Assembly: GCA_947466585.1 (NCBI GenBank)
Contig: CANIEU010000001.1
Span: forward strand, 48,414-112,413
Reading direction: 5' to 3'
DNA: 64,000 bases
Source of the DNA: Fibrobacterota bacterium
GTDB taxonomy: Bacteria; Fibrobacterota; Fibrobacteria; UBA11236
The notes under the pieces were generated by a model. It saw only the letters and a program-made list of their open reading frames with translations. It did no database searches and was not told the DNA's origin. Of this stretch, positions 9,416 to 43,136 are shown piece after piece. The translations under genes and the position numbers were made by a program. Position 1 is the first letter of the stretch, and every line of letters starts with the position of its first letter.

Positions 9416-10254
9416 GCCGGGGTGGGAATCTCTCCGCGGAACACTTCCACCGCATTGCCGGTCATCCTCACGGAACCCTTGCCGTCATACTCCAGCAGCA
9501 AATCGCCGCCGGTGAGATGGATGGTGAGGCGGTCATCGGTGAGGCCGAGTCGACGGCCGATGGCGGCCACAGCCGAAGCACCCGTGCCGCAGGCCCAGGT
9601 CTCCCCCGCGCCGCGTTCCCACGTGCGTTGGATGACTTCGTTGCGGGAAAGGATCTGCACGAATTCCACATTGACGCGGCGCGGGAACCAGGGGTGGTTC
9701 TCGATACGCGGTCCGATTTCGGCGACGGGAAACTCGGCGACATCGTCCACGTAGATCACGCAGTGGGGATTGCCCATCGACACCGATGAGAACTCGAAGG
9801 TACGGCCCGCGACCTCGATCTTTTGCTTCAGCACCTCGGGCGCGTCGATGATGGTGGGGATCTTGAGGCCTTCGAAGATGGGAGCGCCCATGTCGATCTG
9901 GATCAACTCCGCGTTTCCGGCGGCGTCGCGCGAGACGATGCGGGCCGTGCGCCAACCGGCACCGGTCATCAGCTTGAGCTCGTCCTTGCCGCGTGCGTAA
10001 GTGTCGTGCACGTACTTGGCCACGCAGCGGATGCCGTTTCCGCACATTTCGGAGCTGGAGCCGTCGGCGTTGTACATGTCCATTTCGCCGTCGGCGTCGG
10101 GGTACGGCTTGATCAGGATCAGACCGTCGCTGCCCACCCCATAGTGCCGGTGGGAGACCCTGCGAGCCAATTCCACGGGATTTTCAACGGGTTCGCGGAA
10201 AGCGTCCACATAGACATAATCATTGCCGGTGCCGTGCATTTTAACGAATTGCAT
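9412..10254 (-). CDS. dapF: Diaminopimelate epimerase
   Basis: MQFVKMHGTGNDYVYVD N-terminus and two catalytic Cys (CGNGIRC, ACGTGA). Confidence 0.95.
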   Translation of the reverse strand: MQFVKMHGTGNDYVYVDAFREPVENPVELARRVSHRHYGVGSDGLILIKPYPDADGEMDMYNADGSSSEMCGNGIRCVAKYVHDTYARGKDELKLMTGAGWRTARIVSRDAAGNAELIQIDMGAPIFEGLKIPTIIDAPEVLKQKIEVAGRTFEFSSVSMGNPHCVIYVDDVAEFPVAEIGPRIENHPWFPRRVNVEFVQILSRNEVIQRTWERGAGETWACGTGASAVAAIGRRLGLTDDRLTIHLTGGDLLLEYDGKGSVRMTGNAVEVFRGEIPTPA

Positions 10255-10296
10255 AGGACAAAGATAGCGAAGATGCGCCAGGGCGGCGCCCCCGGG

Positions 10297-12627
10297 TCAA
10301 AAAGTCGAAGCGGCGCTTTCGACGGCATTGTCGCTGACATTTGCGACGGCCCGATCCATGAAGTCTTCGGCTTCGCGACGGATTTCATCGGCGGTCGAAA
10401 GCTCGAGCAAGCGACCCACAAGGTCGCGGCAGTCGGGCATGGTCACGCGATCGAGCGCCTCGCGCAAGCCTTCGGCGGAGCCGGGTGCTATGCTGAGCGA
10501 GGTGAGTCCGAGCCCGAGCAAAAGCGAGAGTGCGACGGGATCGCCCGCCATTTCACCGCACACCGTCACCGGCTTGCCGGCGGCTTGCGCCGCATCGGCG
10601 ACGCGCTTGAGTGCATGCAGGAAGGCCGGATGGTAGGGGTGGTGGTATGCGGCCACGCGTTCGTTGCCGCGATCGATGGCGAAGAGATACTGAATGAGAT
10701 CGTTGGTGCCCAGGCACAAAAAATCGGACTCGGCGAGGAAGGCTTCGATCTGGATCACGGTGGAAGGAATTTCGATCATGATGCCGACGGGCGGGACCCG
10801 CAGCTTCTTGCCCATTTCGTTTTCGAGCTCGAGTGTGGCGGCCTGCAGGTGCGCTTTGATTTCGCGCAGCTCACGCAAGGTGGAAATCATGGGAATCAGC
10901 AACCGCATTTCGCCAAGCTGGGCGGCACGCAGCAATGCCCGCATGTGCGGTTTCAGAATTTCTGGACGCTGCAGCAACATGCGGATGGAACGCCATCCGA
11001 GGCTGGGATTTTCTTCGCGGCCCCAATCGAAGTACTTGAGTGGCTTGTCGCCGCCCACATCGAGAAGACGGAAGGTCACCCCGAAGTTGCCGCACCGCTC
11101 CATGACCTGACTGTAGACGCCAAACTGAGCCTCTTCGTCAGGGAAGGAATTACGGATCATGAAAAAGAATTCCGACCGGTAAAGCCCGACGCTTTGAATT
11201 CCGAAACGCCGCATGAGGTTGAGGTCGGAGAGCAGCGACACGTTGCCGGAAATGTGCACGGGATGACCGTCGCGCGTGCGGTCGCCGCCTTCGCGCGGCT
11301 TGACGGAACGGGGATGGGCGCGCGAGGCGGCTAGCAGGCGTTGATACTCGCGCACCACGTGGGCATCGGGACGGATGTAAACCAAACCCGAGTTGCCGTC
11401 GAGGATAACGCGCGTGCCCGAGGGCAGGAATTGCGTGAGCCCCGGAATGCCGATGAAGCACGGAATGTCGAGCGAGCGCGCAAGGATGGCGGCATGCGAA
11501 GTGCTACCGCCCGTCTCGCAGAGAATGCCGATGATTTTGCGAGACTGCAAATACACCAGATCGGAAGGCAGCAGTTCGAGGGCGGCCACGATCACACCTT
11601 GGTCCGAGCCGTTGCCCGGTTGGATACGGTCGTTGCGCTCGCCCAGGGCGTTCAGCAGGCGGAGCCCCACGTCGCGCAGGTCGGCCGCACGGGCGGCGAG
11701 CATGGCGATTCCCGAGTCCTGAAAGGCCTTGGCCATTTCGCGCGTGGCCACCTTGACCGCGAACACCGCTGTGGTGCGTTTTTCTTCGATATGGCCCCGG
11801 ATCGCATCGAGGTACGCTTCGTCGGCGAGGAACTGCTCGTGCGTTTCGAAAATCCGCGCGTCCATTTCGGCGAATATTTCGCCCGCGCGCTGCCGCAGCC
11901 AGCGGGATTCTTCGCGCGCGCGCGCTAGAGCCTTCTGCAGATTCGCGAGTTCTCCGGCGATGTCATCGGTTTCGGTGAAGTAAACCGTATCCCAAACGTG
12001 TTGCGTCTTCAGCACGAGCACCGAACCGTCGGCCACGCCGCCGAAGGCGGTTTGCGCGCGCAGAAACGGAGGCGCTTCCTTGGGGGCCACGCTGGCCTGG
12101 GCGCTCTCGGCGGTGGTTCTCACCGCGGCAGGCAACCGACTCTCGAGCAAGGTGCCGAGCTGCGCCGCCAAGGTGTAGGCCAAGTCCTCCACGGTGGGAC
12201 CGAAGGGCACAGCCTCCACACCCTGCAGAATGAGAACGCCGTCACCGCGCGCCTTGCCGGGCGAAATGGGAATGCCCAAAAAGCTCTCGAGCTTTTCCTC
12301 ACCCAGTCCGGGGAAAAATTTGAAGCGCGCATCGCGGCCGGGGTTTGCGATGTTCAGGATTTCGCCGCCTGAATACACAGCGCCCGTCAAACCCTCATCG
12401 GGTTCGAGCGACACTTCCGCCAGCGCCCCGCGGTTGAGGCCGTGGCCGGCGGCAAGTCGCAAGCGTCCCGCGGGAGCGTCGTGGAGATAAATGGAGCATA
12501 CTTCCACGCCCATCTTTTCGGAGATAAGGCGGGTCACGGCATCGAGCGCCGGCTGGATGTCACGCGACTCCAGAATCGTTCGGGCCACCGAACGGATGAT
12601 CTCAAATGCGATGCCGACTTCGGACAC
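10297..12627 (-). CDS. ptsP: Phosphoenolpyruvate--protein phosphotransferase with N-terminal GAF domain (EI-Ntr type)
   Basis: 776 aa; GAF region then PEP-utilizing enzyme domains (SHAAILARSLDIPC phospho-His region, C-terminal TIM barrel). Confidence 0.9.
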   Translation of the reverse strand: MSEVGIAFEIIRSVARTILESRDIQPALDAVTRLISEKMGVEVCSIYLHDAPAGRLRLAAGHGLNRGALAEVSLEPDEGLTGAVYSGGEILNIANPGRDARFKFFPGLGEEKLESFLGIPISPGKARGDGVLILQGVEAVPFGPTVEDLAYTLAAQLGTLLESRLPAAVRTTAESAQASVAPKEAPPFLRAQTAFGGVADGSVLVLKTQHVWDTVYFTETDDIAGELANLQKALARAREESRWLRQRAGEIFAEMDARIFETHEQFLADEAYLDAIRGHIEEKRTTAVFAVKVATREMAKAFQDSGIAMLAARAADLRDVGLRLLNALGERNDRIQPGNGSDQGVIVAALELLPSDLVYLQSRKIIGILCETGGSTSHAAILARSLDIPCFIGIPGLTQFLPSGTRVILDGNSGLVYIRPDAHVVREYQRLLAASRAHPRSVKPREGGDRTRDGHPVHISGNVSLLSDLNLMRRFGIQSVGLYRSEFFFMIRNSFPDEEAQFGVYSQVMERCGNFGVTFRLLDVGGDKPLKYFDWGREENPSLGWRSIRMLLQRPEILKPHMRALLRAAQLGEMRLLIPMISTLRELREIKAHLQAATLELENEMGKKLRVPPVGIMIEIPSTVIQIEAFLAESDFLCLGTNDLIQYLFAIDRGNERVAAYHHPYHPAFLHALKRVADAAQAAGKPVTVCGEMAGDPVALSLLLGLGLTSLSIAPGSAEGLREALDRVTMPDCRDLVGRLLELSTADEIRREAEDFMDRAVANVSDNAVESAASTF

Positions 12628-12636
12628 GGAAACCCC

Positions 12637-12927
12637 TCAGTCCCACTGAATGCCGGGCATCGGCGCATCGGGCAATTTGTCCTTGTTCTTTTTGGCCCAC
12701 TCGAATTTTTTCTCGAGCATGGCGAGCCGGGAATCTTCGACCCGCCGCGATTCGGCGAACTTGTCTTCCAGATCCTTCGCGCGGGTCTGATCGGCCTTCA
12801 GGAACGACTCAAGCGAAAGCGGCGCCTCCTTGTGGGGCGTCGCCTGCAGCACGCCTCCGGTCTCGGAGTCGACGACCAGCTTGGCCTTGCAGCACGGGCA
12901 TTCTATCTGGAGTTCCGGCGAAGACAT
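12637..12927 (-). CDS. Small zinc-ribbon protein (CPCC...C) of unknown function
   Basis: 96 aa ORF, IECPCCKAKLVVD N-terminal zinc-ribbon-like motif, Lys/Glu-rich tail. Confidence 0.45.
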   Translation of the reverse strand: MSSPELQIECPCCKAKLVVDSETGGVLQATPHKEAPLSLESFLKADQTRAKDLEDKFAESRRVEDSRLAMLEKKFEWAKKNKDKLPDAPMPGIQWD

Positions 12928-12961
12928 GGAATGAAAATACGAATTCTATCGGGCGTGGCGT

Positions 12962-14935
12962 CTAGAACTTTTCGACCTGAAACACCTGCATCACGGCCTT
13001 AAAAGGATTCAGTTCCACGAAGTTTCGGTCGGCCCAGGCATAGCTTTCTTCGCTGAAAACCTCGTGCACGCCGAAAATGTTCTCTCCGGCCAGGCCGAGG
13101 GCCGCGCGGTCGACGGTGATCCACCCCGCCTGGGTGGCGGCGGGGTCGAGATTGATCACGAAGAGGAGGCGGTCGTCGCCCTCCACCTTGGAGTAGGCCA
13201 ACATGTTCGGATTGTCGCAGTCGTGGAAACACAGGTTCTTGAGTTGGTGCATCGCCGGATGCTCGGCGCGCAGGCGGTTCAAAAGGCGGATGAAATCCTT
13301 GATGTGGCCGGGCTTGTTCCAGTCGCGCACGTTGTAAGCGTACTTCTCGGAGTCGTTGTACTCCTCCTTGCCCGGGTAGGGATCGTTCTCGCACAGTTCG
13401 TAGCCGTTGTACATGCCGTAGGCGCCGACCAAGGTGGAAGCCAGCGCGTGGCGGATGAGGAACATTTCGCGCGAAGCGTTCTGCAAATGCCAGGGGAGAA
13501 TGTCGGGCGTGGTGGCGAAGAAGATGGGCCGCATGTACAGCGACGGCTCCTGCTGGGTCAGATCCTCGCAGTATGCGCGCAACTCCGCTGCGGTAACGCG
13601 CCAGGTGAAATAGGTGTACGACAAATCGAAGCCGCCCTTGGCGAGACGCTTCATGATTTTGGGGCGCGTAAAAGCCTCGGCGAGGAACATCACTTCGGGA
13701 TGATCCTTCTTCACTTCGGCGATCATCCAATCCCAGAAGGCGAAGGGTTTGGTGTGCGGATTGTCGACACGGAAAACCGTCACGCCCATGTCGATCCAGA
13801 AATCGATCACCGATTTCAGCTCGCACCAAAGGGCCTCACGGTCATCGCAGAAGAAGTTGAGCGGATAGATGTCTTCGTAGCGCTTGGGCGGATTCTCCGC
13901 ACAACGGATGGTGCCGTCGGCCTCGCGATAGAACCAGTCCGGATGATCTTTCGCATACGGGTGATCGGGCGAACAGTTGAGTGCGAAATCGAGCACGACC
14001 TCGAAGCCTTCTTGACGGCAGCGGTCGAGAAAGTGGCGGCAGTCGGCCAGAGTTCCGAGTTCCGGATGGACCGCCTTGTGTCCACCGTCCCCGCCCTTGC
14101 CTTTCAGGCGATAATTCCCAATGGCATAGGGCGAACCGGGTTCCCCGGGTTGCGCGGTGAGCCCGTTGTTGCGGCCCTTGCGCTTGGTTTCGCCGATGGG
14201 ATGAATCGGCGGCAGATAAATGGTGTCGAAACCGAGATCCTTGACATAGGCGAGACGACGCTCCATGTCGGCAAAGGTTGCGCTCTTGCCGGTCACCGTG
14301 CCTTGCGAACGCGCGAACATTTCGTACCATGCGGCGAACTCGGCAGCTTTCGGATCCACGCGCAACAACCCGTAATGCGGATGCAGATACGGTTCTTCAA
14401 AGGCCGCGTACACGGCATAGCCTTCGCGGTTCAGCGTGCGCGCTTCGAGAGTGAACTCCCACTCGCCCAACGCATCGGGTTCGAACTCCCCGGCCCACGC
14501 GTCGTTATCAACAAAGCGCATCGGCGTGGTGCGCCATACCGTCTCGCCCTTGCGGCGGAACAACAGATCGGCCTCGCACTTTTCATGCCCGTCACGAAAG
14601 ATGTCGGCAGTGACGGTGACCGTTTCACCCAGCACGGCCTTGACGGGAAACAACCCGCCCTCGACCTGCGGCATCAAGTTTTCCACCACGGCGTGGGCGG
14701 TCAGGCGAGCCTCGGGGATCGCCGGTTTTTTCAGATCGATTTTGTTCGCGAGCTGTCGGGGCGCAGCATGCTGCGCCCTTTCGGCCTTCTTCGCAGGTGC
14801 CGGTTTTTTTGCCGACTTTGCAGCAGGCTTTGCGGCCTTCTTCACGACCTTCTTCACGATCTTCTTTGTGGCCTTCTTAACGACCTTCTTCACGATCTTC
14901 TTTGCAGGCACAGACTTCTTTTTCTTCGCGGGCAT
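12962..14935 (-). CDS. glgE: Alpha-1,4-glucan:maltose-1-phosphate maltosyltransferase GlgE (GH13) with about 50-aa Lys-rich histone-H1-like N-terminal tail
   Basis: GlgE N-domain signature FPVKAVLGETVTVTADIFRDGHE, GH13 catalytic core; start at MPAKKKK (ATG 14935..14933) overlapping upstream stop as TAATG. Confidence 0.8.
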   Translation of the reverse strand: MPAKKKKSVPAKKIVKKVVKKATKKIVKKVVKKAAKPAAKSAKKPAPAKKAERAQHAAPRQLANKIDLKKPAIPEARLTAHAVVENLMPQVEGGLFPVKAVLGETVTVTADIFRDGHEKCEADLLFRRKGETVWRTTPMRFVDNDAWAGEFEPDALGEWEFTLEARTLNREGYAVYAAFEEPYLHPHYGLLRVDPKAAEFAAWYEMFARSQGTVTGKSATFADMERRLAYVKDLGFDTIYLPPIHPIGETKRKGRNNGLTAQPGEPGSPYAIGNYRLKGKGGDGGHKAVHPELGTLADCRHFLDRCRQEGFEVVLDFALNCSPDHPYAKDHPDWFYREADGTIRCAENPPKRYEDIYPLNFFCDDREALWCELKSVIDFWIDMGVTVFRVDNPHTKPFAFWDWMIAEVKKDHPEVMFLAEAFTRPKIMKRLAKGGFDLSYTYFTWRVTAAELRAYCEDLTQQEPSLYMRPIFFATTPDILPWHLQNASREMFLIRHALASTLVGAYGMYNGYELCENDPYPGKEEYNDSEKYAYNVRDWNKPGHIKDFIRLLNRLRAEHPAMHQLKNLCFHDCDNPNMLAYSKVEGDDRLLFVINLDPAATQAGWITVDRAALGLAGENIFGVHEVFSEESYAWADRNFVELNPFKAVMQVFQVEKF

Positions 14936-16173
14936 TATGCTTCCACCTTGTTGCGTGCAACCAGTTCCTTGTAAAACGTCAACGTCTGCGCGGCCACGCT
15001 CTCCCAGGAGAAACGTTCCTCGACGCGCTTGCGGCCCGCCGCGGCAAAGGCCGCGCACTTGGCCGGATCTTCCACGAGTCCCGTGATCGCATCCGCGAGG
15101 CGGCGCGCAAAGTCGGCGGGATCCTTCGGCTCGAAATCGGTGCCACCCACGGGATCCGTGTCGACGAGGATTCCGGTTACACCGTCGGCCACGGCCTCGG
15201 GAATGCCGCCCACGCGGGAGGCCACCACGGGCGCTCCGCAGGCCATAGCCTCCAGGTTGATGATACCGAAGGGCTCGTACACCGAAGGGCACACGAACAG
15301 CGCCGCATGCGAATACAGGTTGATGACATCTTCGCGCGCGACCATGGCTTCGATCCAAATCACCGCGAGGTCAGGACGCTGTGCGCGCAGGTCGGCGACC
15401 CGTTGGCGCATTTCGGCACCGATCTCCGGAGTATCGGGTGCGCCGGCGCAGAGCACGATTTGCGAACCTTGCGGCAAATGCGCGAGGGCATGCAGCAAAT
15501 GCAGGATGCCCTTCTGCCGCGTGATGCGTCCGACGAAAAGAATAAAGGGCTTATCGGCATCGATGCCGTGTTTCTTGAGCAGCTCCGGATTCGGCTTGTT
15601 GCGGTATTCGTTGACGTCGATGCCGTTGGGAATGACGCGGATATTGGCGGGATCAACGCCGTACAGTTCCTGCACGTCGCGTTTCATCGATTCGGAAACC
15701 GCGACCACGCCGTCTGCGTTTTGATAGGCGGTTTTCTCCAGCCACGACGAAGCGTGGTAGGCGTTGCCGAGTTGCTCGACCTTCCACGGGCGGTGCGGCT
15801 CCAAGGAGTGTGTGGTGAGCACCAGAGGAACGCGCAGCAGTTGTTTCACAAGACAGCCTGCAAAGTGCGCATACCACGTGTGGCAATGCACGATGTCGGA
15901 GGCCGTCACGGTGCCGGCCATCATCAAGTCGCGGGCGAGCGTATCCATGAGTTTGGCATGCTGCGCGTTCTGGTTGGGCAAGGTGAAGTCGGGGGTGAGT
16001 CCGCGGGCGGTGATGTCGCCGTCCTGCTCGTTTTGCTTGCCGAAACAAAGCACTTCGACGGGATTTTTACCCGGTTCGAGGCCGGCGAGGGCGCGGCTCA
16101 AATACTCGACATGGACGCCTGCGCCGCCGTAAACGTGCGGCGGATATTCATTGGTCAAAAGGGTAATGCGCAT
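14935..16173 (-). CDS. glgA: GT4 glycosyltransferase of the actinobacterial GlgA/GlgM (alpha-maltose-1-phosphate synthase / glycogen synthase) type
   Basis: MRITLLTNEYPPHVYGGAGVHVEYLSRAL matches the GlgM/GlgA N-terminus; GT4 fold; coupled to glgE. Confidence 0.8.
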   Translation of the reverse strand: MRITLLTNEYPPHVYGGAGVHVEYLSRALAGLEPGKNPVEVLCFGKQNEQDGDITARGLTPDFTLPNQNAQHAKLMDTLARDLMMAGTVTASDIVHCHTWYAHFAGCLVKQLLRVPLVLTTHSLEPHRPWKVEQLGNAYHASSWLEKTAYQNADGVVAVSESMKRDVQELYGVDPANIRVIPNGIDVNEYRNKPNPELLKKHGIDADKPFILFVGRITRQKGILHLLHALAHLPQGSQIVLCAGAPDTPEIGAEMRQRVADLRAQRPDLAVIWIEAMVAREDVINLYSHAALFVCPSVYEPFGIINLEAMACGAPVVASRVGGIPEAVADGVTGILVDTDPVGGTDFEPKDPADFARRLADAITGLVEDPAKCAAFAAAGRKRVEERFSWESVAAQTLTFYKELVARNKVEA

Positions 16174-34154: not shown

Positions 34155-35342
34155 ATGGCGGGCGATGCAAACACGGACGGCAAAGAGGTTTTGTTCACGA
34201 TCACGCGTGACCACCTCGACACGGGTTTGCGAGGGTTTCCCGTGGGCACCTGTCCCATCAGCGACGTCGATCCGATCAAGGGATTGAGTTATGGCGGTAT
34301 TCCTATCGCCGAACTCGCCCACCTCGATCCGGAAGAGGTCATCCACCTCTTGCTGCGCAAAGAGCTGCCCGACGCGGCCAAGCTAGCCGTGTTCCACGGC
34401 GAACTGCTGGGCCAAGGTCCGCTGAATCCCGGTGTGCTCAAGTTGCTCGAGAGCTTCCCCCGCAAAGGCCATCCGATGAAATGGCTGCTCGGCGGTTTGG
34501 TGGCGATGGGCATGTTCGAAAACGCGGGGGATTACCGCAAGGATTGCCTGCGCGTGATCGCGCAATTGCCCGAACTCGTGGCGGCGATCTTTCGTATCCG
34601 CTCGGGCTGGGGCGCGCCGATCGCTCCGAAACCCGAATTGGGCTGGGTGGAGAATTTCGTGCACATGCTCGGCGCACCCGGCGCATCGCCCGATCTCACG
34701 CGGCTGTTGCGCGTGTTCATGATTCTGCACTTCGACCACGGCGGCGGCAACCTTTCGACCTTCGTGGGCAAGGCCGTGGCCTCGGGCCACGAAGACATGT
34801 ATGGATCGCTGGCCGGCGCCATGGCCGGCCTCGCGGGCCCGTTGCACGGTATGGCCAACCAGGAGTGCCTGCGCTTCGTGAAGGAAGTCGCTGCGGAGAT
34901 CAAGGATCCCACCGATCTTGAAGAAGTCAGCAAGTATGTGGAGAACCGTCTCGCCACCGGCGGCGTGCTGTTCGGCTTCGGCCACGCGGTGCTCCGCGTC
35001 GAAGATCCGCGCGCGACAGTGCAGTACGCCCTCGGCGAAGAAATCGCCCAGAACGATGGTCTGTTCCGCCTCGCAGTTTCGCTGCGCACTGCGGGAGTCG
35101 AAGCTCTGAAGAAGCGCCCGAAGGTCAGTAATCCGTATCCGAACGTCGACGCCGTGTCGGGGACGTTGCTGAACGCCTGCGGCCTGACCGACGAGACGTA
35201 CTATACGGTGCTATTCGGCTTGTCGCGCTGCGTAGGCATTGCGTCGCAGATCGTGTGGGAACGCACCGAGGCGCGGGGTGGCAAGGGAATGCCCATCGTA
35301 CGGCCGAAGTATGTGTACACCGGGCCTGCGGTTAAGGGGTGA
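34155..35342 (+). CDS. gltA: Citrate synthase (small, about 395 aa type)
   Basis: GPLHGMANQE and HGGGN active-site motifs; start MAGDANTDGKEV. Confidence 0.9.
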   Translation: MAGDANTDGKEVLFTITRDHLDTGLRGFPVGTCPISDVDPIKGLSYGGIPIAELAHLDPEEVIHLLLRKELPDAAKLAVFHGELLGQGPLNPGVLKLLESFPRKGHPMKWLLGGLVAMGMFENAGDYRKDCLRVIAQLPELVAAIFRIRSGWGAPIAPKPELGWVENFVHMLGAPGASPDLTRLLRVFMILHFDHGGGNLSTFVGKAVASGHEDMYGSLAGAMAGLAGPLHGMANQECLRFVKEVAAEIKDPTDLEEVSKYVENRLATGGVLFGFGHAVLRVEDPRATVQYALGEEIAQNDGLFRLAVSLRTAGVEALKKRPKVSNPYPNVDAVSGTLLNACGLTDETYYTVLFGLSRCVGIASQIVWERTEARGGKGMPIVRPKYVYTGPAVKG

Positions 35343-35498
35343 TTTTTAAGGAAATGGGTGTTTGGAAGGGGCTCTCGGAAGGGGGCCCTTTCTTTTTAGT
35401 CAGAATTCCGCGAGGTTCCGTTACGAGGTTTACGTCCTGGATATTGGGGTTCTATAATGGGAGCAATGCAATTCAGCGGAAAGGTTTAAGGTCCTAAT

Positions 35499-36053
35499 AT
35501 GACTAAGCAAATAGTCTTCCTTGGAATCCTGATTTTATCTCTCCTCAGCCTTTCAAATGCTGGGCAAAATACGGTTAGCCAAAGCGGAGCAACTGTTGAG
35601 AAATGGAAGTCCTTAGAAAACTGGCGAATGTTAAGGAATGACATGGGTCAGAAAAGTGTGAGAAAAATATTGGGGGAGCCAGAACGTATCAATGGCGGAG
35701 TAGTAGCTTTTTGGAACTATCCAAATGGCGGCGACGTTACCTTCATGGATGGCAAAGTGTCTGGATGGAGTGAGCCACTTAGATGGGATGAGGGATCAGG
35801 AAACGCCTCCTCATCAGATATTGATCCAGATAAATTAGTGCTAGGAATTTTACTGGTTGCGATTCTCTTCTATTTTACACCGATTCTGTGGGTGTTGTTT
35901 TCCAGCCGTTCAACTGGTGGGGCTAAATTCGGTTGGTTCCTTATAACCATTGTGTTTTCTTGGTTAGGATTCGCAGCCTTTTTGATTTTGACGCAAACGG
36001 CAAAGGCCCGTAAGCAATTAGAATCGAAAACATACGGAGGACAAAGTGAGTAG
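35499..36053 (+). CDS. Secreted/membrane protein: BamE (SmpA/OmlA)-like domain plus C-terminal two-TM PLDc_N-like segment
   Basis: Signal peptide; W.L..GM....V...LG.P..I...W.Y..GG.V.F.....V.GW.EP pattern; C-terminal ILFYFTPILWVLF...FGWFLITIVFSWLGFAAFLI. Confidence 0.5.
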   Translation: MTKQIVFLGILILSLLSLSNAGQNTVSQSGATVEKWKSLENWRMLRNDMGQKSVRKILGEPERINGGVVAFWNYPNGGDVTFMDGKVSGWSEPLRWDEGSGNASSSDIDPDKLVLGILLVAILFYFTPILWVLFSSRSTGGAKFGWFLITIVFSWLGFAAFLILTQTAKARKQLESKTYGGQSE

Positions 36054-36405
36054 ATATCATTTCGCAATTTTGATTTCGCTCCTTGTGTCAGCAACCCAAG
36101 CATCTTCACAAACCAGCTACGATTCCATGTCGCAACAGCTTGAAGAGAAGATCATATTACTTGAAAAACGGATTTCCACAATTGAAGATCAATTGAGGGA
36201 AGGGAAAGCACCGATTCAAGCTCCTCCGGGAAAAGCGAGCTGGCGACAGCTTAAAAAGGGCATGTCTGAGGCCGAAGTCGAAGGATTGCTAGGCAGCCCT
36301 GCCAAGATTGAAAATTATGGATCCTTCAGTATTTGGAACTATCAGAAGGGTGGTTCTGTTCAATTCAACGAGGACGCATTAGTCAAAGGTTGGTTCGAGC
36401 CCTGA
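36046..36405 (+). CDS. Secreted BamE-like protein, paralog of preceding ORF, with coiled-coil N-region
   Basis: Signal peptide MSRYHFAILISLLVSATQASSQ; shares the W..L..GM..EV..LLG.P..I...W.Y.GG.V.F....V.GW.EP pattern with 35499..36053. Confidence 0.5.
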   Translation: MSRYHFAILISLLVSATQASSQTSYDSMSQQLEEKIILLEKRISTIEDQLREGKAPIQAPPGKASWRQLKKGMSEAEVEGLLGSPAKIENYGSFSIWNYQKGGSVQFNEDALVKGWFEP

Positions 36406-36430
36406 CTCAAATTCTCTTACGCTATGACTT

Positions 36431-36593
36431 CGGTCTGATGTATGAGACGTACCACACGATGCTGTTCGGCCTGTTGCGCTGCGTGGGCATTGCGTCGCAG
36501 ATCGTGTGGGAACTCACCGAGGCGCGGGGTGACAAGGGAATGCCCATCGTGCGGCCGAAGTACGTGTACACGTGGCCGGCTGTAAAGGGGTGA
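36431..36593 (+). pseudogene. Duplicated 3' fragment of the citrate synthase gene (last roughly 50 codons) with its downstream sequence
   Basis: Translation ...YHTMLFGLLRCVGIASQIVWELTEARGDKGMPIVRPKYVYTWPAVKG closely matches citrate synthase C-terminus; similarity continues about 90 nt past the stop. Confidence 0.7.
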
Positions 36594-36893
36594 TTTTTAC
36601 AGGAAATTGGTGTGTGGAAGGGGCTCCTAGAAGGGGGCCCTTTCCTTTTTAGTCAGAGTTTTTAGAGTCCCCGTGAAGGGGTTTACGAAGTAAGAGCCTA
36701 GGTTTATACTAAAGCTCGTTCACCTAACGACTGAGGCATTTAATCTGCAGTGCTAGTCAAGGTTATTACCACTAGACCAATTTCTGGCCAGATAACCCCG
36801 TAAACACAAATTATCAAAGGCGCCCATCCAATTTGTTGGTTTCGGCCATATGGCAAACCCTACAACTACTCAGAATATGACAGGCAGGCGGAA

Positions 36894-37808
36894 TTGATGA
36901 AGGCAATACAGATATATAAGCCTGGCTATCTCTATGTACTAGTTCACCCATCTAATCCAAATCTCTATAAGATCGGAGTAACTGTCCTTCAACCTGAGAA
37001 GCGATTGGCCCAGCATAACAATCAACACAACAAATACGCGGGCAAGATCGTCAAAGAGTCGGGTCAAAAATGGGAGCTTAAGGCACACATTTCCGTCCCC
37101 GACCCATATTGGGCTGAAAGTGCCTTTTGGGGAGCTACGCATTTCCCGGAAATTCCTTATCGAAAAGGCATCGAAATCGAAATAATGACTTGGGATTTGG
37201 TGCAAATTGGTTTGGAGGCGGCAAAACAGGCCGGGGTTCGACCAACCCCAGCGTCTTACCCTGATTATGTGTATGCCTATACGGCGTCAGTCCAAAAACG
37301 ACTGGAAGGCAGAGGCATTTCCCTCTTAGGATACGTGCGAAGCATGGTGAGCGGAAGATCCGATTTCCGATGCGAAAATGGACACGAATGGCACACGACT
37401 CCTAAACTCGTAGCTGATGGAGAGGGTTGTCCCATTTGTGGGATTGGCACACAGAGTTTAACAGAGATCAGAGAGCGTATTAAGGCCGGCGTTATATTCT
37501 TACTGACACATGAAGGTAGGCCTGGATATTTTAAAATTGGGCTGCATTTAGGCGCTATCGAAAATGCTTTCCAAAACTGGCCTTTTGGCGATTGGCAGTG
37601 TCATCGTTATAGGAATGTGGAGGAAGTCGAACTAGCCATTACAGTTATTTGGGAGTTACTAGGATTGCCTCTTCCCCATGACCAAGAAGCATTCATGATG
37701 GATAAAAAGGAAGCGGAAAAAGCTTTCAGAGATTTGACTTACGTTATCCAGGAACGGACTGCCGCCACCGGGAGGGTCAAAGAGAAACCCAATGACTCCA
37801 ATCGCTAA
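36894..37808 (+). CDS. Tandem T5orf172/MUG113-type GIY-YIG-superfamily protein with an internal zinc ribbon
   Basis: GYLYVLVHPSNPNLYKIGVTVLQPEKRLAQHN matches T5orf172 N-terminal consensus; degenerate repeat GVIFLLTHEGRPGYFKIGLH; CENGHEWHTT...CPICG between them. Confidence 0.55.
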   Translation: MMKAIQIYKPGYLYVLVHPSNPNLYKIGVTVLQPEKRLAQHNNQHNKYAGKIVKESGQKWELKAHISVPDPYWAESAFWGATHFPEIPYRKGIEIEIMTWDLVQIGLEAAKQAGVRPTPASYPDYVYAYTASVQKRLEGRGISLLGYVRSMVSGRSDFRCENGHEWHTTPKLVADGEGCPICGIGTQSLTEIRERIKAGVIFLLTHEGRPGYFKIGLHLGAIENAFQNWPFGDWQCHRYRNVEEVELAITVIWELLGLPLPHDQEAFMMDKKEAEKAFRDLTYVIQERTAATGRVKEKPNDSNR

Positions 37809-38235
37809 ACAAACCGCCCCTTCGGTCAAATCCTTCCTCGCCTCGCTCGACGACGAACAGACCCAAGCGGATGCGAAAATGCTCGTCGCTCTGATGAAGC
37901 GCATCAGCGGGAAAACCCCAAAGATCTGGAACGTCGGCACGATCGGCTTCGACACCTACCACTACAAGTACGACAGCGGACGCGAGGGCGACAACGCCGT
38001 CCTCAGTTTTTACCCCCGCAAGGGCAAGTACACCATTTACCTGATGGACGGCTGCGCACGCCATTCCAAATTGTTGGAAAAACTCGGGAAGCACACCACA
38101 AGCCGCGTTTGCCTCTACTTCAAACGACTCAGCGATTTGGATTTAACCGTCCTGGAAAAAATCCTGGAACAGTCCTACGCCTACATCAAGGCGCAAGACG
38201 GGAACATGGGCCAAGTGCAAGAGGGATGGCGATAA
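37792..38235 (+). CDS. DUF1801 (YdhG-like) domain protein, overlapping the preceding gene by 17 nt
   Basis: 147 aa; pattern consistent with DUF1801. Confidence 0.55.
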   Translation: MTPIAKQTAPSVKSFLASLDDEQTQADAKMLVALMKRISGKTPKIWNVGTIGFDTYHYKYDSGREGDNAVLSFYPRKGKYTIYLMDGCARHSKLLEKLGKHTTSRVCLYFKRLSDLDLTVLEKILEQSYAYIKAQDGNMGQVQEGWR

Positions 38236-38294
38236 GGGCCATCAAGCGCTCGAACGCAAACGAATCGTCGCAGACAATTCTGCGCTGACTGGAT

Positions 38295-38457
38295 CCCGGC
38301 CTTCGCCGGGATGACAGCGTTTGGGGCAAAACACAGGTCATTCCTCCAGGCCGGAGTTTACCCCCGCGAAGGCGGGGGCCGGGATGACAGCGTTGGGAGC
38401 AAAACTCGAGTCCTTCCTTCGGACCAGAGATTACCCCCTTCCGCTCGAAGGATGGGG
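38295..38457. repeat. About 2.5 degenerate tandem copies of an approximately 70-bp unit, each starting with a GC hairpin followed by gggatgacagcgtt(t)ggg(g/a)gcaaaac
   Basis: cccggccttcgccggg / cccccgcgaaggcggggg / ccttccgctcgaagg hairpins read directly; at island boundary. Confidence 0.45.
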
Positions 38458-39526: not shown

Positions 39527-40786
39527 TTGCGGACATGGGCTACCTTTCCCTCGATGCCCCCCGCCTCGAAATCAGAAGTCCATCCCGCCCGCACCGAATC
39601 TCCAGTATGGGGTGCAGGCTGGGTGATGTTCCTCAGCTTCGCAGGCCTCTCCGCAACGCAGTTCCACGGCTACCTCTTTGAAGGCAAAGGCTTCTCGCCC
39701 TTGCAGATCGGCTTCCTGCTCGGTGCCGGATACGCCGCAGGGCTGCTCGCACCGGCCGTGCAGGTCAACGCCATCCGCCGCCTGCGGGGCCCGCGCATCC
39801 CGCTCGCCATCGTGCTCGCCGGGGCCGGCACCGCCATGGCCCTGTTGCCGTGGGCCAACCACTTCGGCTCCGTGCTCTTCCTGTTTTTCTGCACCCTGTT
39901 TTGCTCCGCGGGCATCCACCCCCTCACCGCCGCCTGCGCGCTCGAGGCCACGCGCACGCGCGGGCAGGGCACCTACTTCTTGATCCGCAGCCTCGGCACA
40001 GCGGGATTTTTAGCGGGATGCATCGCCAGTTTCTTTCAGCCGGGCGTCGACAAACTGCCGTGGTTGTACTTCGGATTCGGCGCGGCCTTTTGGTGCACCA
40101 TTCCCCTTGCGCTCAACCGTTTTCGCCCGAGCGATCCGCGTCAAGCGCCCGAAGACATCCTCGTCACGCCGCTCCCGCGCCGCACTCCCGGATTCGGCCG
40201 CGCGTTGCGCCTGCTCTCCGCCCCGCGCGCCAAGCGTTTGTTATGGACGCTCGGTGTGATGAATTTCGCCAACGCCATGGCCACCCTGGTGCAAGGCAAC
40301 TATCTCGTCTCGCGTTTCGACGGCGGGCAAAGTTCCATCAGCTTCGCATGGATCGTGGCGACCACGGTGGAGATACCGCTGATGTTTTTATGCGCCTGGA
40401 TGGTGCGTCGCTTCGGCCTGCGCACCGTGATCGGATTCGGGCTGCTCGGCACCACCATCAAGCTGGCATTGCTTGGAGCGGCCGACAGTTACGGCGTGTT
40501 TCTCGCCGGACTGGCCTTCCACGGCTGTTTCTTCTCGGGCGCGCTCGTGGGATTCAATCTCTTCATCGACAAACATTTCGCCATCGCCGATCGCCCTTCG
40601 TTGCAATCGCTGGGCGCTCTCTTTTATACCGGATTGCCCTCGGCATTCGGCGGACTCACCGCAGGGGTGCTCTGGCACTTCTTCGGCTTGCGCTCGGTGT
40701 ACGTGTTCACGGCGCTGGTGGCGATCGGGGCGGGAGCGTACACGCTCAGGCTGCTGCCGATGCTGCCGGGACGGGAGAGACGGTAG
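39527..40786 (+). CDS. MFS transporter (12 TM); start may be downstream; last codons and stop lie in repeat arm
   Basis: multi-TM hydrophobic profile across 419 aa. Confidence 0.7.
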   Translation: MRTWATFPSMPPASKSEVHPARTESPVWGAGWVMFLSFAGLSATQFHGYLFEGKGFSPLQIGFLLGAGYAAGLLAPAVQVNAIRRLRGPRIPLAIVLAGAGTAMALLPWANHFGSVLFLFFCTLFCSAGIHPLTAACALEATRTRGQGTYFLIRSLGTAGFLAGCIASFFQPGVDKLPWLYFGFGAAFWCTIPLALNRFRPSDPRQAPEDILVTPLPRRTPGFGRALRLLSAPRAKRLLWTLGVMNFANAMATLVQGNYLVSRFDGGQSSISFAWIVATTVEIPLMFLCAWMVRRFGLRTVIGFGLLGTTIKLALLGAADSYGVFLAGLAFHGCFFSGALVGFNLFIDKHFAIADRPSLQSLGALFYTGLPSAFGGLTAGVLWHFFGLRSVYVFTALVAIGAGAYTLRLLPMLPGRERR

Positions 40787-41571: not shown

Positions 41572-42252
41572 ATGCTGAAAAGCCTGGAATCCCATCTGTG
41601 GCCGCGCGAAAAAATGGGGCGAGAGGGCGCCGAAGCCCTGTCGAACCAGGAATTGCTGGCCGTGCTGTTCGGCCGCGGCCAAAGGGGCAAGGACGTGCTC
41701 GCACTCGCGGGCGAAGTCACTCTGTACCTTGAACGCGTCACCGAACCGCCTACCCTCCACGACCTCTGCCGCATCCACGGCATCGGCCACGGCAAGGCCT
41801 GCCAGATTCTCGCCGCGCTCGAGCTCTCGCGCCGCTTCCTGACGCGACGCCATCGCATCCGCATCCGCAAAGCGTCCGACGCCCTTCCCTACCTCGGCTC
41901 GTTGCGCGGGCGCCGGCAAGAATGCTTCGCCGTGCTCACGCTCGACGGCAACCATCAGGTGATCCGCGCGCACGAGATCACCATCGGGCTCGCGAACCAA
42001 AGCCAGGTGCACCCGCGAGAAACCTTCGCCTGCGCGGTGGAAGATCGTGCCGTTGGGATTCTGGCCGCGCACAACCATCCCAGCGGCTCGCTCGATCCTT
42101 CTGCCGAAGACCTCGTCTCCACACGTCGGCTCGCCGAAGCCGGACGACTGCTCGGCATTCCCTTGCTCGACCACCTGATCGTCACCGCGGAGGGGTTCAC
42201 TTCTTTGCGGGAGAGATTTCCGGATTATTTCGTGGGGGCGAGAGGGTGGTGA
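41572..42252 (+). CDS. radC: RadC-like JAB/MPN-domain protein (UPF0758); alternative upstream start at 41434
   Basis: LWPREKMGREGAEALSNQELLAVLFGRGQRGKDVLALA helix-hairpin-helix N-region and HNHPSGSLDPSAED JAB zinc motif. Confidence 0.75.
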   Translation: MLKSLESHLWPREKMGREGAEALSNQELLAVLFGRGQRGKDVLALAGEVTLYLERVTEPPTLHDLCRIHGIGHGKACQILAALELSRRFLTRRHRIRIRKASDALPYLGSLRGRRQECFAVLTLDGNHQVIRAHEITIGLANQSQVHPRETFACAVEDRAVGILAAHNHPSGSLDPSAEDLVSTRRLAEAGRLLGIPLLDHLIVTAEGFTSLRERFPDYFVGARGW

Positions 42253-42256
42253 CCAA

Positions 42257-42752
42257 CGGACGGTAGACGGTAGTAGGTAGACGGTAGAGAACCCATCTGG
42301 AGAACTTATGTCAACGACAAAGGGATACAGGCAATTAATTGTCTGGCAGAAGGCAATGGAAATGATTCCCGAAGTTTACCGTATCATCCGTGTGCTTCCA
42401 AAAGAAGAGCGATTTGGAATGGCTGAACAAATGCGAAGAGCAGCAGTTTCAGTTGTAGCCAACATGGCCGAAGGCCAAGGCAGAAACGGAAAACGGGATT
42501 TTGCTCACTTCCTCGACATCTCTCAAGGGAGCCTCTCTGAATTGGATACCCTCCTTTCAATCGCAATACAGCTGGAGTACGTGCCCGAAACTACCACCAA
42601 AGCCGTTTCGGAAAAACTCGTGGAAGTTCGGAAATTATTGTTCGGGCTTCTTAATAAGCTCAGAACGTCTTAGAATAATGAACCCCCATTTTTCTGAGTT
42701 TCCCCGATTTTCGTCTTCTCTACCGTCTACCTACTACCGTCTACCGTCTATC
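42257..42752. mobile_element. Expanded palindromic GGTAG-unit element carrying a four-helix-bundle protein gene as cargo
   Basis: Left arm cggacggtagacggtagtaggtagacggtagagaac (42257-42292) and right arm tctctaccgtctacctactaccgtctaccgtctatc (42716-42752) match arms of the empty copies at 27043 and 40775. Confidence 0.55.
42308..42673 (+). CDS. Four-helix-bundle protein of the 23S rRNA intervening-sequence protein family (Avd-like)
   Basis: 121 aa; QLIVWQKAMEMIPEVYRIIRVLPKEERFGMAEQMRRAAVSVVANMAEGQGRNGKRDFAHFLDISQGSLSELDTLLSIA is characteristic of this family. Confidence 0.75.
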   Translation: MSTTKGYRQLIVWQKAMEMIPEVYRIIRVLPKEERFGMAEQMRRAAVSVVANMAEGQGRNGKRDFAHFLDISQGSLSELDTLLSIAIQLEYVPETTTKAVSEKLVEVRKLLFGLLNKLRTS

Positions 42753-42761
42753 TTTTCTTCC

Positions 42762-43136
42762 ATGGAACCGCTTGCTTTGCTTGGTGTAGCCATCGGTGGT
42801 GCGACCGGATCGGTCGTGCGTTACGCGATTCAGTCGATGTTTCGCCTGTCGGCATTTCCCGTCGGGACTCTCCTCGTCAACCTTTTGGGATCTCTCCTGA
42901 TCGGTCTGTGCGCGGCATTTGCGGAGCGCGGCACGCCGTGGATCCGGACTTGGCTCATGGCCGGGTTTCTGGGCGGTTTCACCACGTTTTCAGCCTTCAG
43001 CCTCGAGAATTTTCGGCTGATGCGCGACGGGCAAGCCGGAATGGCGCTCGCCTATGCGCTCACCAGCCTGGTCGCGGGTATTTTGCTTGCCTTCGCGGGA
43101 TATTGGGCCGGTTCCCTGCTTTCGCGAGCGATTTGA
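42762..43136 (+). CDS. crcB: Fluoride ion channel CrcB/Fluc
   Basis: 124 aa, 4 TM, GTLLVNLLGSLLIG and GFLGGFTTFSAFSLE motifs; no fluoride-riboswitch-like sequence recognisable upstream. Confidence 0.85.
   Translation: MEPLALLGVAIGGATGSVVRYAIQSMFRLSAFPVGTLLVNLLGSLLIGLCAAFAERGTPWIRTWLMAGFLGGFTTFSAFSLENFRLMRDGQAGMALAYALTSLVAGILLAFAGYWAGSLLSRAI

Follow-up and report, generated by a model that had tools for sequence, protein, structure and literature searches.

Genes and repeat copies downstream of citrate synthase

The stretch of DNA analysed here (the window, 64 kb) contains an intact citrate synthase (CS) gene. The 3' end of this gene, with its terminator, is found a second time 1.25 kb downstream of the live gene. 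The features are as follows.

34155..35342, + strand: CS gene, intact, 395 aa (Pfam Citrate_synt, E 3.8e-91, profile 1-357/357)
35173..35403, + strand: repeat copy A, the last ~56 CS codons, stop, 21-nt spacer and intrinsic terminator with T tail
35364-35393: terminator of copy A, 13-pair stem then T run, -22.0 kcal/mol
35429..35458, + strand: promoter-like module P_A, toward sORF1 (TTTACG, 18-nt spacer, TATAAT)
35499..36053, + strand: sORF1, 184 aa, with signal peptide, BamE-like domain and two C-terminal hydrophobic helices (by eye)
36046..36405, + strand: sORF2, 119 aa, GTG start after a GGAGG ribosome-binding site, with signal peptide, coiled coil and BamE-like domain
36424..36656, + strand: repeat copy B, displaced dead CS 3' fragment (to 36593) and intact terminator
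36616-36645: terminator of copy B, intact, 13-pair stem, -24.4 kcal/mol
36682..36710, + strand: promoter-like module P_B, toward the T5orf172 gene (TTTACG, 17-nt spacer, TATACT)
36894..37808, + strand: T5orf172/GIY-YIG-like protein with a central treble-clef zinc finger, GC3 0.45
37792..38235, + strand: DUF1801 gene (Pfam DUF1801), conserved right neighbour of the variable slot
39626..40786, + strand: MFS transporter gene, ancestral right flank of the hotspot, directly after CS in 9 relatives

The direct duplication of the CS 3' end was first proposed in a sequence-only reading, and both repeat search and blastn self-comparison show that it is real. The repeat search aligned 35177-35348 with 36428-36599 (172 nt, 87%) and 35343-35397 with 36595-36649 (55 nt, 85%), the two blocks being offset by a 1-nt indel. 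By blastn, copies A and B match over 260 nt (84.6%, E about 1e-78). With the best boundaries, 35173-35403 and 36424-36656, the identity is 86.7% over 233 aligned columns. The identity of nine positions in ten estimated earlier is appropriate for the core 35225-35403 (89-92%) and slightly generous for the repeat as a whole. The leftmost 52 nt are only 73% identical, far below the core (Fisher p = 0.002). Past the terminator tail (35404 on), the copies have in common only the -35 hexamer (6/6) and the -10 hexamer (5/6), while the 18-nt promoter spacer is 28% identical. The drop in identity comes straight after the terminator, where the gene contents of the two haplotypes differ (Fisher p = 2e-10). 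Since only the promoter hexamers are shared past the terminator, the duplicated unit ends at the terminator. The promoter modules behind the two copies are separate versions that diverged long ago. A third copy, which tandem accretion would have left, is not found in the window with word sizes down to 7.

Independent assemblies of seven samples (ERZ27277814, ERR12084923, ERR3761204, ERR12084926, SRR6787038, ERR3761214, and ERR12084910) show the same collinear order at 100% identity (99.95% in L104), which excludes an assembly artefact. Three contigs are short and cover it in part: L047 stops before copy B, and L105 and L106 begin just upstream of copy B. Samples with an identical CS or T5orf172 protein were compared for polymorphism, and collinearity with the window was seen in every one.

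Copy B contains 8 amino-acid replacements. Each affects a site at which the six closest relatives all have the same residue; the 8 sites are likewise invariant in almost all of the twelve relatives compared. These replacements agree with the earlier description of copy B as a dead gene fragment, and the translation given there matched. The differences between copies A and B are distributed over the three codon positions as 5/4/12, a synonymous excess, and 4 synonymous changes are derived in copy A. The codon positions suggest that part of the divergence took place while both copies were functional genes. Their synonymous divergence is about 0.25-0.3, and dN/dS on the copy B lineage is about 0.5, based on about 10 changes. 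The extra changes in the left shoulder are almost all B-derived and non-synonymous. GC3 is 0.79 in copy A, 0.85 in copy B and 0.78 in the rest of CS, and is uninformative as to which copy is native.

The regulatory signals are intact at both copies. The spacers after the stop codons show 3 differences in 21 nt, and this spacer is found in no relative. JGI metagenomes scanned for the exact pattern of the terminator gave 0 matches. The promoter-like module (GGTTTACG, 17-18 nt, TATAMT) is seen 3' of the terminator also in L048, L033, and L066. Judging from these signals, both terminators and both promoters are probably in actual use; the module of copy B now faces the T5orf172 gene.

The two overlapping ORFs reported between the copies are present, and their paralogy is supported by BLASTP (34% over 73 aa, E 3e-12), corresponding to a domain of ~70 aa. 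Positional homologs of sORF1 are P0004 in L048 and P0003 in L063 (51% identity), and the family of sORF2 has 1458 representatives. Against Pfam BamE (PF04355), sORF2 scores 20.8 bits, below the cut-off of 23.2, and sORF1 gives no match at E up to 10. A Pfam BamE match is seen in 45 of 61 members of the sORF2 family (best E 4.4e-7). The AlphaFold2 model of sORF2 has a pLDDT of 88.8, and its best Foldseek matches in PDB are BamE chains, OsmE, BLIP, and BtiO, with a probability about 1.0 and E only 0.015-0.1. The BamE-like domain recognised earlier is thereby supported, with the two proteins' own scores remaining under the cut-off. Based on the model, sORF1 and sORF2 are predicted to share the helix-helix-beta-sheet domain common to BamE/SmpA-OmlA and BLIP-like periplasmic proteins (PF04355; PDB 5wam, 4dm5, 3e2l, 9uu1). 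They differ from true BamE in their sub-cut-off scores and in signal peptides without a lipobox cysteine (by eye, the signal regions of both contain no Cys). Besides, sORF2 has an extra coiled coil and sORF1 an extra two-helix membrane anchor. They are not BamE orthologs. It can be speculated that they have an inhibitor or immunity-like role. The C-terminus of sORF1 was also read as PLDc_N-like. PLDc_N (PF13396) matches it at E 0.68 and 10.4 bits, against a cut-off of 23.3. Of 7 scanned members of the sORF1 family, 6 show the match at the corresponding position (E 0.002-0.9), always below threshold, and the assignment is suggestive only.

Gene turnover and scars between CS and MFS in relatives

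The gap between the CS and MFS genes is 109-660 bp in 9 relatives, while in at least 11 others it is occupied by 2.5-5.5 kb of unrelated genes. Genes for an OLD nuclease, a DpdF-like helicase and a SoFic-like Fic protein occur there, as does an integron. The CS-MFS interval is a hotspot of gene turnover in a Fibrobacteria lineage, and CS is its conserved left anchor. CS of the closest Fibrobacteria relatives is 85-92% identical to that of the window. Orthologs of the DUF1801 gene are present in L063 (79%), L068 (68%), and L048 (60%).

Four other relatives show scars comparable to copy B. In L063, the order is the Fic gene, the last 15 CS codons, the terminator, the promoter, the sORF1 homolog and DUF1801; the sequence that flanks this fragment is similar to its native counterpart in L040 and L048 and unlike that in the window. 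In L068, a 37-47-nt CS fragment with the terminator lies ahead of a low-GC OLD nuclease gene, and 34 of 37 nucleotides of the fragment are identical to the CS gene of the same genome. In L066, the 30-nt terminator is duplicated at 90% around a 1.7-kb insert. In L004, a 227-nt repeat (84%) of a gene for a small two-helix membrane protein brackets a whole integron (TIGR02249 at 379 bits, three 62-nt attC-like repeats). Scar length is not constant across these genomes and the window, with values of 233 nt, 37-47 nt (and a terminator in addition), 50 nt, and 30 nt. The left boundaries of copy B in the window and of the L068 fragment fall at the same CS codons, Cys-Gly-Leu-Thr-Asp, within about 6-15 nt. 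L048 has no repeat; here the sORF1 homolog comes straight after CS and the same terminator-promoter module.

A 25-nt match of L066 to the CS boundary lies inside a thioredoxin-like gene, is not collinear and was judged to be due to chance. L102 is an unrelated organism with lower GC and is uninformative as a comparison. An integron or attC origin of the cargo was rejected, as the window has neither an IntI homolog nor an attC-like repeat family.

Origin of the duplicated 3' end

The geometry was originally read as site-specific integration into the 3' end of a gene. A remnant of an integrative element of the e14/icd or ICESt1/fda type, which brought a replacement 3' end for CS and has since lost its integrase and most of its genes to leave an att-flanked non-autonomous remnant, would explain several observations. 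In PMC13626634 (citing Hill et al. 1989), e14 is described as a 15-kb prophage that occupies icd in E. coli, encodes an integrase and is excised precisely; icd is intact and the pseudogene icdC lies at the far end. Likewise, in the window the 3' end of a live TCA-cycle gene and a displaced C-terminal pseudogene copy bracket an insert as direct repeats, and the gene is functional. The common start codons of copy B and the L068 fragment, and the foreign-looking GC3 of the sORF1-sORF2 segment (0.43-0.45, with 0.43 for sORF1, vs 0.78 for CS), point in the same direction.

Unlike e14 as described there, however, the insert in the window is 1 kb and has no recombinase, the repeat includes the host terminator, and relatives carry the gene of the insert without the repeat. 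The earlier remark that no integrase is present is correct: Pfam scans of the ORFs from CS to MFS and Pfam annotation of 8 kb on either side revealed no recombinase in the insert or within 8 kb, and tblastn with IntI found no homolog in the window. The same element with the same junctions is not found elsewhere; L048 is without the repeat, and the scars of L063, L068, and L066 differ. Low GC3 is found throughout the sORF1 family, whatever the host. The homologs of sORF1 are in place without duplication in L048 and on the displaced side of the scar in L063. The presence of these 51% identical homologs at the corresponding position contradicts the idea that the piece between the copies is a foreign island confined to this genome. 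Both copies hold a lineage-specific chromosomal spacer and a terminator, which attP is not expected to carry. The unequal scars surround unrelated inserts, and recombinational turnover fits this better than a single site-specific element. What stands of the proposed integration is the duplication geometry with an intact gene; the missing recombinase and the different lengths and inserts of the scars do not agree with it, and an integrative remnant is considered unlikely.

Copy B is most likely a recombination scar, formed as alternative accessory genes were stacked, rather than the trace of an island moved by an integrase. The process responsible has about an even chance of being repeated one-sided homologous recombination combined with illegitimate recombination, of the kind proposed under the name of sequential displacement for T6SS and Rhs arrays. 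We infer the following mechanism and direction of import. DNA of a related strain with different genes downstream of CS would have recombined in and left copy B, which would be the displaced original or an alternative CS 3' end. One homologous crossover would have occurred within the conserved CS gene, and the other end would have been joined illegitimately in or near the CS 3' end of the recipient. Such a process would be homology-facilitated illegitimate recombination, that is, sequential displacement. The module stacked next to the live gene would be CS-terminator-P_A-sORF1-sORF2, and the module pushed downstream CSpsi-terminator-P_B-T5orf172-DUF1801, each with a terminator and a promoter of its own. 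Equally possible would be the mirror image of this event, with homology in DUF1801, an illegitimate left join and import of CSpsi and T5orf172.

Homology-facilitated illegitimate recombination was proposed for the T6SS effector-immunity arrays of V. cholerae (PMC5361080), and in the same paper also for the C-terminal displacement of Rhs/CDI (citing Jackson et al. 2009; Poole et al. 2011). As in the systems described there, the conserved upstream gene of the window is intact and adjoins what would be the newly arrived module, and the former 3' end and downstream genes are shifted beyond it as orphans. The pattern is repeated with different modules and junctions and without a recombinase in L063, L068, L066, and L004. 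In contrast to the T6SS/Rhs systems of that account, the anchor is the gene of a housekeeping enzyme with a conserved 3' end and not a polymorphic toxin tip, the cargo consists of miscellaneous accessory or defence-type genes and not of effector-immunity pairs, and a single displaced layer is seen. Many hotspots are without mobile elements and recombine at flanking core genes (PMC5635113). The variable region between the core genes CS and MFS resembles them in its rapid turnover, its defence-type cargo and the general lack of mobility genes. Their model is scar-free double homologous recombination, whereas the duplication here needs at least one illegitimate join.

The lineage-specific spacer, present in both copies and absent from relatives, indicates that both copies came from closely related chromosomes, not from attP. 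The homologs of sORF1 in the same slot of L048 and L063 would also favour displacement. L048 carries the order CS-terminator-promoter-sORF1, but its CS is only 83% identical. Neither a parental haplotype CS-terminator-P_B-T5orf172 nor an exact donor of sORF1-sORF2 was found in the genomes and metagenomes scanned, and protein-based scans of both yielded no relative beyond about 90% CS identity. Sliding third-position identity gave no signal of a mosaic breakpoint within CS, the relatives being too distant (0.4-0.8). Among the observations that count against displacement are the left boundary common to the window and L068, which random illegitimate joins do not predict, and the extra divergence of the left 52 nt of copy B.

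The divergence of copies A and B could equally result from an old duplication in situ. Here, the CS 3' end and terminator would have been duplicated by unequal or illegitimate intragenomic recombination, followed by gene turnover in both slots, and occasional gene conversion would have preserved the similarity of the central 180 nt. The core of 89-92% identity between diverged shoulders (73% at the left, 28% in the promoter spacer) looks like a conversion tract. The shared left boundary is consistent with this origin, as is the resemblance of the psi fragments to the CS of their own genome (34/37 in L068). More steps are needed, however: a duplication and then two independent replacements. The native-like flank of the L063 fragment, unlike that of the window, indicates independent events, and the B-derived, non-synonymous changes of the left shoulder are a sign that B has decayed, and not of an older divergence common to both copies. 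Duplication in situ is regarded as quite improbable.

If copy B was left by displacement, the locus is a clean and multiply replicated case of accessory genes stacked beside a housekeeping gene without the machinery of mobile elements. The scar of such stacking is datable, being a gene-tail pseudogene with a predicted working terminator and promoter, and gene-tail scars could help to locate hotspots driven by recombination in uncultured groups, the Fibrobacteria among them. The locus also warns against taking each duplicated gene 3' end for an integrase attachment site. The small proteins of the BamE/BLIP fold and the scattered T5orf172 family are cargo that may have roles in defence or competition.

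The T5orf172 gene and its possible activity

The T5orf172 gene matches Pfam T5orf172 at 33.3 bits (cut-off 20) and Pfam GIY-YIG at 20.6 bits, below the cut-off of 22.6. More than 500 homologs at 55-65% identity are scattered over many phyla in a patchy manner, in variable, defence-type neighbourhoods. The gene is horizontally acquired cargo. An origin as phage or plasmid cargo was rejected, as there is no plasmid match and the similarity to phage endonucleases is confined to the zinc-finger segment. Arrays of T5orf172 genes on marine contigs contain no attC family.

The duplication was also suggested to be mediated by this gene. As a free-standing homing-type selfish gene, it could have moved in during double-strand-break repair with the left flank of its donor, which would have consisted of the CS 3' end, terminator and promoter. 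Copy B lies immediately before the gene and supplies its putative promoter, the family is patchy across phyla, and the central zinc-finger region resembles phage-encoded endonucleases. The nearest homolog (65%) is that of L054. Here, the 3' end of the upstream DUF188 gene recurs as a 64-nt copy (89%) before a pair of a 235-aa ORF and T5orf172. On the other hand, the three other T5orf172 contexts checked (L056, L059, and L060) have no flank duplication, and the scars of L063, L068, L066, and L004 are without any T5orf172 gene. Canonical intronless homing, as of the T4 seg and mob genes, replaces flanks and does not duplicate them. With the GIY-YIG match under the cut-off, the nuclease activity itself is putative, and homing is a very doubtful source of the duplication.

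In another reading, which has only a slight chance of being right, the CS 3' end and terminator are a preferred landing pad for integrase-independent insertion, with a favoured junction at Cys-Gly-Leu-Thr-Asp, and the locus is an array of promoter-equipped cassettes. The insertion would possibly be driven by the T5orf172/GIY-YIG nuclease, which is suggested because at the L054 locus, too, the 3' end of the upstream gene is duplicated. If so, each insertion would come with its own terminator-promoter unit and the locus would be analogous to an integron. The sequence TGCGGCCTGACCGAC may be a candidate target DNA of the putative T5orf172 nuclease.

The duplicated end of the citrate synthase gene

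The 3' end of the citrate synthase (CS) gene is present twice in the window. A repeat search aligns 35177-35348 with 36428-36599 (172 nt, 87% identity) and, with a one-base offset from this match, 35343-35397 with 36595-36649 (55 nt, 85%). By blastn, copy A (the live 3' end with its terminator) and copy B (the displaced second copy, CSpsi) match over 260 nt at 84.6% (E about 1e-78), and MAFFT concurs. The duplication described in the sequence-only reading is thus borne out by all three comparisons, and the translation given there for copy B was reproduced. Diagnostic 28-mers of the repeat occur exactly twice in the window (0 expected by chance), and a word-7 search of the window found no third copy. 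Copy A is the genuine end of a full-length CS gene (34155-35342; Pfam Citrate_synt, E 3.8e-91, profile positions 1-357 of 357). The host belongs to an uncultured Fibrobacteria lineage; by CS its nearest relatives, known from Fibrobacteria metagenome-assembled genomes, are 85-92% identical. Independent assemblies from seven samples, one of them a 377-kb ENA contig, show a collinear arrangement at 100% identity (99.95% in the same-organism assembly L104), although three short contigs each span just part of it. The arrangement is therefore a real feature of the organism, and mis-assembly is ruled out.

Identity between the copies is uneven along the repeat.

Segments of copy A with their identity to copy B, and the promoter-like modules
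35173-35224, left shoulder, coding: 73%
35225-35342, last 39 codons: 92%
35343-35403, post-stop spacer, terminator and T tail: 89%
35404-35428, terminator to -35 hexamer: 56%
35429-35434, -35 hexamer: 6/6
35435-35452, promoter spacer: 28%
35453-35458, -10 hexamer: 5/6
35429-35458, P_A, sigma-70-like TTTACG-18-TATAAT, facing sORF1
36682-36710, P_B, sigma-70-like TTTACG-17-TATACT, facing the T5orf172 gene

Based on this profile, the duplicated unit is best bounded at 35173-35403 and 36424-36656 (86.7% identity), with the terminator as its end. In both terminators the 13-pair hairpin and the T tail are intact (-22.0 and -24.4 kcal/mol for A and B), and the differences between them are confined to the loop. 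The module GGTTTACG-N17/18-TATAMT is also found after the equivalent terminator in one relative (L048) and after a Fic gene in two others (L033 and L066). It is an old recurring regulatory module, outside the recent duplication. Through its terminator, the relic at copy B would insulate the T5orf172-DUF1801 pair, which it would also supply with a promoter.

The 54 codons shared by A and B contain 21 nucleotide differences (5/4/12 by codon position), which were polarised with six relatives.

Polarised differences between copies A and B
Derived in B: 2 synonymous, 8 non-synonymous
Derived in A: 4 synonymous, 0 non-synonymous
Lineage ambiguous: 7 synonymous, 0 non-synonymous

Copy B is a decaying pseudogene: each of its eight non-synonymous changes strikes a residue that does not vary among the six closest relatives, nor in almost all of the twelve compared. 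The B-lineage dN/dS of roughly 0.5 and the synonymous excess, which includes changes derived in A, suggest at these few sites that A and B diverged partly as functional genes in separate genomes. Third-position identity is 0.78 between A and B, 0.63-0.74 between A and relatives, and 0.57-0.78 between B and relatives; at these sites A and B therefore resemble each other, at best, only a little more than they resemble species-level relatives. A and B differ at three positions of the 21-nt post-stop spacer, and no alignable spacer was found in the relatives compared. This indicates that both copies derive from chromosomes within this narrow lineage. The extra divergence of B's left 52 nt, which the favoured recombination model (below) does not account for, is almost wholly B-derived, with seven of the ten changes derived in B; error-prone repair at the joint is a speculative cause. 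GC3 was tried as a pointer to the native copy and is uninformative (A 0.79, B 0.85, remaining CS 0.78).

Genes between and after the copies

Two small ORFs, sORF1 (35499..36053, 184 aa) and sORF2 (36046..36405, 119 aa), lie between the copies. They have one domain in common (BLASTP E 3e-12), in agreement with the paralogy first proposed. The GTG start of sORF2 has GGAGG ahead. Searching the library with a profile of the domain retrieved 1458 representative proteins. Most of them resemble sORF2 in layout, being about 125 aa long and combining signal peptide, coiled coil and domain. The sORF2-type family is large (window 36046-36405; proteins P0138-P0282), and the scan turned up no dedicated Pfam family for this architecture. 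The BamE-like motif first noticed by eye holds for the family, as 45 of 61 sampled members match Pfam BamE (best E 4.4e-7) and the structural model is of BamE type, but the window's own proteins stay under the cut-off (20.8 against 23.2 bits). The AlphaFold2 model of sORF2 (pLDDT 88.8) best matches BamE chains, OsmE, BLIP and the Bacteroides T6SS immunity protein BtiO (PDB 9uu1), with probability about 1.0 and E just 0.015-0.1. Inspection by eye shows no lipobox cysteine in the signal peptide of either small protein. Both are predicted to be BamE/BLIP-fold secreted proteins, with BamE orthology rejected. The PLDc_N-like two-helix segment at the C-terminus of sORF1 recurs at the same place in six of seven family members scanned, but as a sub-threshold match throughout.

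GC3 is 0.43-0.45 in sORF1, sORF2 and the T5orf172 gene, against 0.74-0.84 in flanking genes, and is also low in sORF1 homologs in every host.

The protein at 36894-37808 is above the Pfam T5orf172 cut-off and has a treble-clef zinc finger; its GIY-YIG match is sub-threshold, and its similarity to phage endonucleases is restricted to the zinc-finger part. A second T5orf172-like segment is apparent by eye at its C-terminus. Its gene overlaps the start of DUF1801 by 17 nt. Its homologs number more than 500, share 55-65% identity and are scattered over many phyla, including Proteobacteria, Planctomycetota, Chlorobiales and this Fibrobacteria lineage. In the loci examined they always lie in variable neighbourhoods adjoining GmrSD, methylase and HEPN genes, and none was found among 72,556 plasmids searched.

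At the locus of the nearest homolog (L054, 65%), the last ~20 codons of an upstream DUF188 gene are duplicated 285 nt downstream (2681-2744 and 3027-3090; 64 nt, 89%), ahead of a T5orf172 pair. Judged by eye, the stretch between the copies resembles part of an ethanolamine ammonia-lyase light-chain gene. GmrSD, NOV_C and a DNA methylase are encoded at this locus too. This DUF188 copy would favour a duplication driven by the GIY-YIG-like gene, as the sequence-only reading had considered, but three other T5orf172 loci have no flank duplication and four scars occur in relatives without such a gene, making this origin very improbable.

Scars in relatives and the origin of the repeat

The ancestral gene order is LPD, IDH, CS, MFS. 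MFS lies within 109-660 bp of CS in nine relatives; at least 11 more have 2.5-5.5 kb of unrelated genes in between, and in the window the two genes are 4.3 kb apart. Based on this range, the CS-MFS interval is a turnover hotspot.

Loci of relatives, with CS identity and what follows CS
L048, 83%: terminator, promoter, sORF1 homolog (51%), DpdF-like HNH helicase, two-helix membrane protein, DUF1801; no duplication
L063, CS gene off the contig: Fic gene, last 15 CS codons, terminator, promoter, sORF1 homolog, DUF1801 (79%)
L068, 88%: terminator, about 200 nt, 37-47-nt CS fragment, terminator, low-GC OLD nuclease gene, DUF1993, DUF1801, ArsR, AHSA1
L066, 89%: 30-nt terminator twice (90%) around a 1.7-kb insert, then SoFic-like Fic gene, promoter module
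L004, 85%: chromosomal integron bracketed by a 227-nt, 84% direct repeat

In at least five lineages, an insert is bracketed by diverged copies of its left neighbour, and repeat lengths and cargo differ. The L004 repeat is made up of a small gene for a two-helix membrane protein, intact in both copies. Of the five, L004 alone has a recombinase, and this is an integron integrase, an enzyme that does not act on repeats of this type. The insert in the window is without a recombinase, as first noted. A site-specific element like e14 in icd (PMC13626634) is unlikely, since neither an integrase nor the same element elsewhere was found. The initial reading as a decayed integrated island should shift to that of a scar left by recombination at a hotspot, now the favoured one.

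The L063 fragment (L063:1070-1290), directly after the Fic stop codon, has a flank resembling the native flank of L040/L048 and looks like an independent displacement scar. The L068 fragment is identical to its own gene at 34 of 37 positions and, like copy B, begins at the codons for Cys-Gly-Leu-Thr-Asp. By our rough estimate, assuming about 300 nt of possible join positions, chance agreement of this left boundary is about 4%; random joins do not predict it. An old in-situ duplication followed by gene conversion would account for this boundary and for the identity profile, but it requires more steps and conflicts with an L063 scar that arose independently; it is quite unlikely. It is also very doubtful that the site is a landing pad targeted by a nuclease, free of any integrase, for cassettes equipped with promoters.

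The simplest process yielding all five patterns would be homology-facilitated illegitimate recombination. DNA from a related strain, with other gene content downstream of CS, would arrive and recombine homologously within the highly conserved CS gene. Its other end would be joined illegitimately a short way back in the recipient, whose old 3' end, terminator and downstream genes would be kept and shifted downstream. This recombination would explain the identity collapse right after the terminator, where haplotype gene content diverges, the lineage-specific backbone in both copies, the absence of an integrase, and the sORF1-type gene on the new side in the window and on the old side in L063. 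The incomer could be either the sORF1-sORF2 module, anchored in CS, or the CSpsi-T5orf172 module, anchored in DUF1801.

The same process has been invoked for Rhs C-terminal displacement and for the sequential displacement of T6SS effector-immunity modules (PMC5361080). The proposed model also fits a general pattern, in which many hotspots are free of mobile elements and recombine at the core genes beside them (PMC5635113). The process itself is known and the instance is new; its main value lies in the comparative genomics of uncultured Fibrobacteria, and it warns that 3'-end duplications should not be equated with att sites.

Other features of the relatives and of the window

The orphan CS fragment of L068 comes with a terminator of its own and precedes the OLD-family nuclease gene (L068:2300-4342; AAA_15 and OLD-like TOPRIM; PADLOC Old, E 2.7e-54). 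The terminator copies of L066 are at 7224-7253 and 8927-8956, and its two inserted ORFs look RhuM-like and thioredoxin/TlpA-like, as judged by reading the sequence. L004 carries a complete integron directly after CS (9348-16118), with IntI on the minus strand (9648-11180; TIGR02249, 379 bits) and three 62-nt attC-like repeats (12182, 12853 and 15610) with low-GC cassettes. The record is labelled 'uncultured Bifidobacterium sp.'; the label or binning is probably wrong, because CS and gene order are Fibrobacteria-like. The hotspot in L048 holds an HNH and DEAD-box helicase gene (1162-2841; PADLOC DpdF, E 4.5e-178); a 572-aa ORF in L033 (12878-14596) may encode a protein of this type, judging by its sequence and length.

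Between DUF1801 and an ArsR-family gene, the window has two tandem 61-nt units (38305-38438; period 73, 82% identical), each hairpin-capable. No further copies were found in the window or the fetched loci, save this strain's own contigs. The 22-nt stretch 38294-38315, just upstream of the tandem units, is identical to L033:4070-4091. A second low-GC patch at 42150-42900, where the composition profile falls to 0.47-0.51 from about 0.62 on either side, may also have been acquired.
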